In this document: piece by piece, positions 31,599 to 32,051 of the stretch | How the letters are laid out: the number at the start of each line of letters is the position of its first letter | How positions within the stretch are numbered: position 1 is the stretch's first letter | Origin: Escherichia phage phi456 | DNA: 64,000 nt | Strand: one strand, 5' to 3' | Sequence record: OR339795 | Notes under the pieces: generated by a model | The model's database searches: none | What the model saw: the letters and a program-made list of their open reading frames with translations, nothing else | What the model was told of the DNA's origin: nothing | Program-made: the position numbers and the translations under genes

Positions 31599-31721
31599 TA
31601 CAATCGTTGCGGGTGCTTGAGGCTATCTGCTTCAGGCATTACCCGAAAAGCAGATAGAAGAAAGCCCCAGATAACATTACGCGTCCTGCAAGACGCTTAA
31701 CATTAATCTGAGGCAATATCT

Positions 31722-31928
31722 ATGCTTAGCATACGTAGATTAGCCTCTTACCGACCAAAAGGTCAAGGAGAAGCAGGCTATGAAGCAGCAAAAAGCGATG
31801 TTAATCGCTCTGATCGTCATCTGTTTAACCGTCATTGTGACGGCACTGGTAACGAGGAAAGACCTCTGCGAGGTACGAATCCGAACCGGCCAGACGGAGG
31901 TCACTGTCTTCACAGCCTACGAATCTGA
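31722..31928 (+). CDS. mok: mok-like overlapping reading frame
   Basis: 68-aa ORF fully overlapping the hok-like toxin frame, as in hok/mok/sok loci. Confidence 0.4.
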   Translation: MLSIRRLASYRPKGQGEAGYEAAKSDVNRSDRHLFNRHCDGTGNEERPLRGTNPNRPDGGHCLHSLRI

Positions 31929-31935
31929 AAGGTAA
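31780..31935 (+). CDS. hok: Hok/Gef-family type I toxin
   Basis: 51 aa, MKQQKAMLIALIVICLTVIVTALVTRKDLCEVRIRTGQTEVTVFTAYESER; compare Hok ...[28 protein letters not shown]. Not in the ORF track (under 60 aa). Confidence 0.8.
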   Translation: MKQQKAMLIALIVICLTVIVTALVTRKDLCEVRIRTGQTEVTVFTAYESER

Positions 31936-32013
31936 GAGACCTGGCGGGGAGAGATCCTCGCCACTCTTCGTGTGTCAGGTATCCTCAATGCACCCTTTCC
32001 TCTCCAAATAAAA

Positions 32014-32031
32014 AAGCTCCCGAAGGAGCTT
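32014..32031. terminator. bidirectional hairpin between hok-like gene and structural operon end
   Basis: AAGCTCCCGAAGGAGCTT; on the minus strand it is followed by TTTTTTATTT. Confidence 0.55.
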
Positions 32032-32051
32032 TAAAATACAAGGGATGACTC

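Follow-up and report, generated by a model that had tools for sequence, protein, structure and literature searches.

The 64,000-nucleotide (nt) stretch of Escherichia phage phi456 analysed in this work (sequence record OR339795, hereafter the window) carries, between repL and bplB, a hok toxin gene, an overlapping mok frame and a predicted Sok antisense RNA. Together these make up a probably intact type I toxin-antitoxin (TA) locus. The system is already known, i.e. it is of a textbook type and its sequence is identical to that of many annotated public records. Those records annotate the toxin coding sequence (CDS) alone: the Prokaryotic Genome Annotation Pipeline (PGAP) labels the identical toxin 'hokD, type I toxin-antitoxin system toxin HokD' (WP_001313475.1) and record MH422554 calls it MokW. 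In the public records inspected we found no annotation of mok, Sok or the cis elements of this copy, and these regulatory coordinates are supplied here.

The hok and mok genes and the predicted Sok RNA

The toxin gene hok lies at 31780-31935 on the plus strand and encodes a peptide of 51 amino acids (aa), MKQQKAMLIALIVICLTVIVTALVTRKDLCEVRIRTGQTEVTVFTAYESER. It matches the Pfam family HOK_GEF (PF01848) with 78.7 bits (cutoff 22, E=2.4e-22) over profile positions 1-42 of 42, and PHROG 251, 'MokW-like host killing', with 110.7 bits; 47 of the 51 residues (92%) are identical to those of HokW from phage 933W. In other words, it is a small (~50 aa), hydrophobic, single-helix toxin that fits the Hok/Gef profile. 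The Shine-Dalgarno (SD) sequence of hok, AAGGAG (31765-31770), stands 9 nt before the ATG at 31780. The mok frame (68 aa, 31722-31928, plus strand) overlaps hok in another reading frame and runs nearly to its end, stopping 7 nt before the hok stop. Its own SD, GAGG (31710-31713), is found 8 nt before the ATG at 31722 and is invariant in the alignment described below, and both SD and start codon lie within the target of the predicted Sok. The mok frame matches PHROG 37205 with 75 bits and is homologous to the annotated mokW of 933W.

An earlier sequence-only reading of the window had proposed a 51-aa Hok-family toxin with an overlapping mok-like frame, situated between repL and the structural genes, and all of this holds. 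The frame disruption that it named as a possible objection is absent, as both frames are intact, and its remark that the gene escapes a 60-aa cutoff for open reading frames (ORFs) is correct, though trivial for a gene of 51 aa. The box that it drew around the module (31650-32040) does contain hok and mok. It cuts off the 5' end, the promoter and the mRNA start being at 31577-31611, and at the right end its last ~30 bases are P1 backbone with the bplB terminator, the conserved unit stopping at 31995.

The codon for Tyr47 of Hok is TAC, followed by a G (31918-31921). The hexamer TACGAA is invariant in 31/31 aligned hok loci, and A31919 is unpaired in the minimum free energy (MFE) structure. A-to-I editing by TadA has been reported in this UACG context for hokB, hokC, hokD and hokE, where it recodes Tyr to a second Cys that is required for a disulfide (bioRxiv 10.1101/2025.08.07.668861).

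The antisense RNA is predicted on the minus strand as a 71-nt Sok running from 31730 to 31660, with coordinates carried over from sokW of 933W through the alignment. This 71-mer has the shape of a Sok RNA, i.e. a free 5' tail plus a stem-loop: a single-stranded 5' tail of 16 nt, a long hairpin and a GGGGCUUUC tail. It folds with -28.2 to -30.3 kcal/mol (z=-5.3) and spans the SD and first three codons of mok. Its counterpart sokW, likewise 71 nt long, has a promoter of its own, has been demonstrated to act as the antitoxin and is visible on northern blots, and a mutation in the -10 of the sokW promoter abolishes the antitoxin protection (PMC8621323). A candidate sok promoter could be read directly from the minus strand at 31737-31766, with a -35 of TTGACC (31766-31761), an 18-nt spacer and a -10 of TAATCT (31742-31737); 24 of its 30 positions are identical in 933W, and the candidate Sok +1 is G31730, seven bases past the -10. 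The antisense RNA had been expected around 31690-31780 on the minus strand, a range that takes in the promoter and the 5' part of Sok and misses the 3' half of the hairpin.

The recognition stretch for the tail of Sok is among the less conserved parts of the leader: compared with 933W it is identical at 15 of 21 positions, against 12/12 in the tac element and 8/8 in the ucb element (see below). Judged from the sequence, this divergence would fit pair-specific recognition with little cross-talk with chromosomal sok genes. For R1, a lack of such cross-talk has been reported (PMC9841398).

The Rfam model RF01794, which bears the name 'sok', matches the plus strand at 31611-31785 with 114.3 bits (gathering score 59, E=1.9e-26) and is complete over model positions 1-157; this is its only above-threshold match in the window. 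The match begins at the tac element GGGUGCUUGAGG, and the consensus ends with AUG, which falls on the start codon of hok. Since it spans tac to the hok AUG on the plus strand, RF01794 models the leader of the hok mRNA despite its name, and we rejected the match as an antisense RNA. The Sok antitoxin is the reverse complement of part of this leader. A minus-strand match of the same model at 31520-31668 (21 bits, E=0.11) was dismissed as noise. It follows that automatic annotation with RF01794 would put the antitoxin on the wrong strand and with the wrong length (157 nt vs ~71 nt).

Structure and conservation of the hok mRNA

The cis elements of the mRNA were read by the published model of plasmid R1 hok (PMC9841398). 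The promoter scan gave a candidate hok promoter at 31577-31604 on the plus strand, consisting of a -35 TAGAAA (31577-31582), a 16-nt spacer and an extended -10, TGaTACAAT (31596-31604), with 9/12 consensus matches and a TG preceding the -10. The latter ends 6 nt ahead of tac and of the first base of the Rfam match, and the presumed +1 of the mRNA is G31611. Homology of the hok unit to 30+ other loci is sharply limited, on the left at ~31597-31611 and on the right at 31995-31997; the homologues are found in lambdoid prophages and in chromosomes of Escherichia, Kluyvera, Citrobacter, Photorhabdus, Erwinia and others. From these bounds and from the fold, the full-length mRNA is predicted to extend from tac to fbi (31611-31995, plus strand), i.e. 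over 385 nt. The tac-to-fbi length is 354-395 nt across the hok family, and the full-length hok mRNA of R1 measures ~398 nt.

The RNA of 385-390 nt has an MFE of about -154 to -155.1 kcal/mol (z=-8.25), a value that none of 100 shuffled sequences equalled. In the full-length fold, the translational activator element tac pairs with the fold-back inhibitory element fbi, and the upstream complementary box ucb pairs with the mok SD, whereas RNAs of nascent length and RNAs truncated at the 3' end fold instead into the metastable hairpin of tac. The tac element (GGGUGCUUGAGG, 31611-31622) forms 12 bp with fbi (CCUCAAUGCACCC, 31983-31995) in the MFE structure, with one bulge; the duplex energy is -19.8 kcal/mol as compared with -9.1 kcal/mol in shuffles, with 0/200 equal. 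The fold-back pairing for which the sequence-only reading suggested looking is present in silico. In the metastable 5' hairpin, which according to the R1 model (PMC9841398) forms co-transcriptionally, the partner of tac is 31629-31644. This hairpin appears in the folds of the first 40, 110-175 and 350 nt and has a duplex energy of -19.4 kcal/mol.

The ucb (AAAGCCCC, 31661-31668), the anti-SD of mok, is invariant in 31/31 loci. In the full-length fold 31664-31666 pair with 31712-31714 (duplex -11.5 kcal/mol), and a tac/ucb duplex is possible at -10.7 kcal/mol. The downstream complementary box dcb, GCCUC (31743-31747), pairs with the mok SD instead in the R1 model (PMC9841398) once the mRNA is truncated; here the duplex has -11.7 kcal/mol, and TAGCCTCTTAC at dcb is nearly invariant in the alignment. 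A 9-bp stem-loop with a GAGA loop closes the 3' part (31942-31963). It is expected, by analogy to R1 (PMC9841398), to be the stop for 3' exonucleolytic trimming, which would leave a truncated mRNA of ~353 nt. All pairings of the refolding switch, i.e. the metastable hairpin, ucb/mok SD, tac/ucb, mok SD/dcb and the 3' stem-loop, are available in silico, with energies from -10.7 to -19.4 kcal/mol. The hairpin at 32013-32032 was considered as the terminator of the hok mRNA and rejected: it is the minus-strand intrinsic terminator of bplB (8-bp stem and T-run in the terminator scan), it belongs to the P1 backbone outside the hok unit and it has no U-tract in the plus direction.

Conservation was investigated in an alignment of 31 loci, comprising the window and 30 full-length hok units (one representative genome per species, plus phage 933W). 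The consensus structure calculated with RNAalifold contains the tac-fbi helix, the hairpin that is the Sok target, the sequestration of the hok SD (in helix 4), a helix that closes the hok start region and the 3' stem-loop. Compensatory changes are seen in 14 of the 72 consensus pairs. Four of these pairs are in helix 3, the long leader hairpin (31669-31709, also in the MFE structure) whose complement is the Sok stem-loop, and three are in helix 13, the 3' stem-loop. Paired cells make up 97.6% of the total, falling to 40-46% on sliding the 3' partners 1-3 columns, and the 14 compensated pairs (77 cells) drop to 1-7 pairs (1-14 cells), a control that is inflated as the tested structure came from the same alignment. 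None of 500 shuffles reached the observed covariation score.

As the bulge in fbi shifts the register between clades, tac was scored against the last 18 nt of each sequence separately. The 12-position end-pairing of tac and fbi is kept in 31/31 loci, with 10-13 bp each, and it is kept via exchanges on both sides, i.e. GGGUGC/GCACCC for GGGCGC/GCGCCC, and GAGG/CCUC for GAGA/UCUC or GAAG/CUUC. Together with the RF01794 match, this bears out the conserved leader structure that the sequence-only reading would have wanted to see.

Insertion site and distribution of the cassette

The window is a P1-like phage-plasmid (Punavirus). Taking NC_005856 as reference P1, positions 1-39909 follow P1 16.6-61.3 kb colinearly, the identity being mostly 96-98.6% (84.7% and 91.4% in two segments), and 55791-61121 align to P1 79.2-84.5 kb. 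Around the locus the P1 backbone is colinear as well, with kilA and repL on the 5' side and bplB, pmgG, 21 and 22, on the minus strand, on the 3' side; the flanks are 97.7-98.5% identical to P1. The hok ORF is placed between repL (30457-31302) and bplB (32052-32561, minus strand). P1 homology breaks off at 31316 and picks up at 32010, so that, by these BLAST breakpoints, a 693-bp cassette (31317-32009) is without counterpart in reference P1. It stands where P1 has the 1,826-bp rlfA-rlfB-pmgF segment, and these three genes are missing from the repL-bplB interval of the window. The segment is hypervariable region 5, one of eight in P1-like phage-plasmids (PMC9603915).

The left breakpoint (31316/31317) falls inside the C1 operator Orlf/Op55, which follows repL in P1. 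The window reads ATTGCTCTAATctggag at 31306-31322, i.e. approximately the first 11 of the 17 operator bases are left, so C1 control over rightward transcription from this point has probably been lost.

Upstream of hok the cassette contains an 81-aa ORF (31353-31598, plus strand; taken from the ORF list), a predicted membrane protein with two helices. It matches PHROG 3772, 'unknown function', over its full length (182 bits), no Pfam or NCBIfam match was found in profile searches, and PGAP names it a hypothetical protein (WP_001369095.1). Within the phage collection it is confined to P1-like records, SJ46 carrying a homologue with 44% identity. The candidate hok promoter and the stop codon of the ORF overlap at the extended -10. 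We rejected this ORF as a part of the TA module, because homology to hok loci elsewhere does not start before ~31599 and the ORF is restricted to P1-like elements.

The distribution was determined with a 1,001-bp junction probe, repL-ORF81-hok-bplB, counted in PLSDB at a coverage of at least 80%. The junction is present in 262 PLSDB plasmids, many of them at 99.7-100% identity, and an equivalent probe was found in 235 of 5,426 complete E. coli genomes; hok-related sequences of any kind occur in 4,748 of the same genomes. Five phage records have the junction, corresponding to four distinct deposits (NC_050153 is the RefSeq copy of MH160767). The sequence-only reading did not associate the module with P1, which uses phd/doc. 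Reference P1 does lack it and has rlfA-rlfB-pmgF at the site, but in the P1 family the module is not unusual: hok occurs in the 262 plasmids mentioned and co-exists with phd/doc.

No phd/doc was found in the window by tblastn; the corresponding P1 segment (88.0-88.6 kb) falls beyond it. The two systems occur together in phages MH422554, MH445380 and MH445381 and in plasmid NZ_CP062896.1. Since hok-bearing relatives also carry phd/doc, hok/sok is an extra module alongside phd/doc and not a substitute for it. phd/doc is among the most conserved genes of P1-like elements (PMC9603915). Matches to phd/doc were found in 20 phage records, from which the hok-bearing P1-like phage vB_EcoM-Ro157c2YLVW (MH160767.1/NC_050153.1, 80.7 kb) is absent; its genome may have hok/sok and no phd/doc.

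A full-text literature search found no paper describing hok/sok in P1-like phage-plasmids. According to a survey that does not single out phage-plasmids, Hok is present in plasmids, prophages and phages in the thousands (bioRxiv 10.1101/2025.08.07.668861), and the reference-genome paper on enterotoxigenic E. coli credits the hok-bearing P1-like plasmid LR882977 with only a 'P1 addiction system'.

Two P1-like phages, 673R5 (~2269-2443) and RCS47 (3371-3630), keep the leader of hok, equivalent to 31483/31570-31745 of the window. These remnants retain the hok promoter, tac, the Sok-coding hairpin, the mok ATG and the -10 of the sok promoter. From ~31745 on, an unrelated minus-strand ORF (171 aa in 673R5) stands in place of the hok CDS and fbi. 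The orphan leaders could still make Sok.

Other parts of the window also depart from P1. Positions 4923-6788, 14481-15718 and 26506-27881 have no P1 match; they are the isaA/IS1, cin/tail-fibre and sim regions and agree with the published hypervariable regions 2, 3 and 4. The P1 immI elements, i.e. the C4 antisense RNA with its a1/b1 targets, are found at 27957-28163 (plus strand) above the Rfam gathering scores (RF01695, 69.6 bits; RF03163, 54.6 bits). A block without P1 match at 39910-55790 stands in place of P1 61.3-79.1 kb (repA, dmt, ban and tail genes 5-26) and contains four copies or fragments of the insertion sequence (IS) IS1 (45072-45254, 48774-49546, 53738-54505 and 55023-55790), together with Rfam matches to the ALIL pseudoknot (42761-42877), which we take to be an IS3-family frameshift element, and to isrC (49499-49620). 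One possible explanation of this block is a resistance/IS island combined with a replicon swap, another a rearranged or defective prophage. Finally, 61122-64000 is without P1 match, includes a 916-aa ORF on the minus strand (61197-63947) and sits where P1 has pmgT and the following genes, which is the published hypervariable region 8.

Mechanism and role of the locus

The closest tested relative of the locus is hokW-mokW-sokW of the Stx2 phages (933W and Sakai prophage 5, Sp5). The two have 86.5% nt identity over 31599-31995, they share an 18-20-nt extension of the Sok hairpin, which is identical at 39 of 41 positions, and both are carried by temperate phages. They differ in the Sok recognition stretch (15/21, as given above), so their specificities are probably separate, and in the sok promoter (TTGACC-18-TAATCT in the window, TTGCCT-17-TAACCT in 933W). 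Nor do they agree in their upstream neighbour or in the -35 hexamer of hok. Moreover, the carrier here is an extrachromosomal plasmid prophage, for which post-segregational killing is possible, whereas Sp5 is integrated.

The archetype of the family, hok/sok (parB) of plasmid R1, has the same tac, fbi, ucb, dcb, metastable hairpin, mok coupling, 3' stem-loop and tail-plus-hairpin Sok, and is likewise carried on a low-copy plasmid. In sequence it is distant, as HokW, which is 92% identical to the present toxin, has 44% identity to R1 Hok (PMC8621323), and the Sok hairpin is longer here. Another group of relatives comprises E. coli hokD (relF) and other chromosomal or prophage hok genes: the identical protein is named HokD by PGAP, and the Tyr codon reported to be TadA-edited in hokC, hokD and hokE is in the same UACG context. 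Unlike these, the present locus is plasmid-borne and has its leader, mok, sok and fbi intact; to our knowledge, K-12 hokD is without a functional sok/mok region. With P1 phd/doc the locus probably shares the outcome for cells that have lost the plasmid prophage, which are killed or arrested, and in relatives the two are on the same replicons. However, phd/doc (P1 88.0-88.6 kb) consists of a protein antitoxin and a Fic-family kinase toxin, whereas hok/sok, in the repL-bplB slot, consists of an antisense RNA and a membrane peptide.

By homology to R1 hok/sok and to hokW-sokW of Sp5, the mechanism would be as follows. The weak extended -10 promoter would yield a stable mRNA of ~385 nt, in which tac is held by the metastable 5' hairpin as long as the RNA is nascent. 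In the complete transcript tac would pair with the 3' fbi and ucb would close the mok SD, so that neither translation nor Sok binding takes place. Slow trimming from the 3' end to the stem-loop at 31942-31963 would strip off fbi, upon which tac would pair with ucb, the mok SD would open and hok would be translated via its coupling to mok. While the plasmid is retained, Sok, a short-lived RNA of 71 nt, would pair across the mok SD and start codon and lead to decay by RNase III. Once the plasmid is lost, or sok transcription is off, Sok would decay first, and Hok would enter the inner membrane and kill the cell.

Our best explanation, to which we assign a probability of about 78%, is an intact hok/mok/sok locus of the hokW/hokD subgroup that is accessory cargo in the hypervariable repL-bplB slot and whose likeliest role is plasmid stabilisation on top of phd/doc. 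Post-segregational killing, which would give the low-copy plasmid prophage extra stability, seems the most likely role as it is what one would expect by default of a hok/sok that is active on a low-copy plasmid.

Several points weigh against this explanation. In the consensus scan no minus-strand promoter was found, the candidate sok promoter having 8/12 matches at a threshold of 9/12, and its -10, TAATCT, agrees with the consensus at only 3 of 6 positions. In other words, the antisense promoter that the sequence-only reading called for is a candidate by homology to sokW and unflagged by the scan. We do not take this negative result as absence of Sok, since experiments show the homologous promoter of sokW to be functional, and the hexamers are directly readable. 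Homology to other hok units ends at 31995, and the next hairpin (32013-32032) has no plus-direction U-tract. The matches to the NCBIfam Hok models are below the curated cutoffs (49.5 vs 73 and 38.1 vs 89 bits) and were left out of the subfamily naming. The inflation of the slide control should also be kept in mind here. Full toxicity of this Hok may depend on TadA editing of the Tyr47 codon. As to the biology, the transcription, processing and toxicity of this copy and its role are what we infer from the relatives; the closest tested one, hokW-sokW, acts in lysis and phage release (PMC8621323), and chromosomal hokA, hokB and hokC failed to mediate post-segregational killing according to the summary in one survey (bioRxiv 10.1101/2025.08.07.668861).

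In the alternative that we rank second, a rather unlikely one, the locus would help lysis as in Sp5. On induction Sok would vanish and Hok would permeabilise the inner membrane, giving more or faster release of progeny, and stabilisation would be a side effect at most. The locus does belong to the hokW subgroup, with 86.5% nt identity for the unit as a whole and 92% aa identity for the toxin, and hokW-sokW is a functional type I TA that promotes lysis and doubles phage release after induction: mitomycin C depleted sokW, HokW accumulated in a RecA-dependent manner and the phage yield was halved without hokW-sokW (PMC8621323). However, the effect in Sp5 is merely twofold, P1 already has a holin, antiholin and endolysin (lydA/B/C/D/E, lyz), and the sequence offers no link of sok transcription to C1 or LexA, whereas an active plasmid-borne hok/sok exerts post-segregational killing by default. 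A related idea, which we regard as doubtful, is that a hok/sok beside the lytic replicon may serve not only addiction but also competition between related elements or induction-coupled lysis. If it were true, the orphan Sok of RCS47 and 673R5 could be an anti-addiction factor that lets these phages displace incompatible hok-positive relatives of P1, or else Hok could be an induction-triggered lysis helper, as in Sp5.

Exclusion of other phages, ranked third, appears improbable. Here a lytic phage would shut down host transcription, Sok would be depleted and the cell would die before the invader matures, which would protect clonal carriers. R1 hok/sok lowered the plating efficiency and plaque size of T4, as cited in PMC8621323, but on a high-copy plasmid; variable regions of P1-like elements often hold defence cargo, and a SIR2-family gene is present elsewhere on NZ_CP062896.1, but the Hok survey reports no enrichment of hok beside defence systems (bioRxiv 10.1101/2025.08.07.668861). 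The least probable alternative, for which we see very little chance, is that the locus is structurally intact and functionally inert, like several chromosomal hok loci, and hitch-hikes in a recombination hot spot. RCS47 and 673R5 are without the hok CDS at this site and show no apparent harm, and P1 backbone has replaced the native sequence downstream of fbi. Against this, no cis element is missing and neither reading frame is broken, hundreds of P1-like plasmids share the unit at 99-100% conservation, and 42 of 45 diverse Hok peptides were toxic whatever their location (bioRxiv 10.1101/2025.08.07.668861).

The result confirms a well-understood type I TA system as common cargo in a known variable region, and in this sense it changes little scientifically. 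P1-like phage-plasmids spread resistance genes in E. coli and Salmonella. The fact that they often carry two unrelated addiction systems, hok/sok and phd/doc, together may help explain their persistence, and it matters for plasmid curing.

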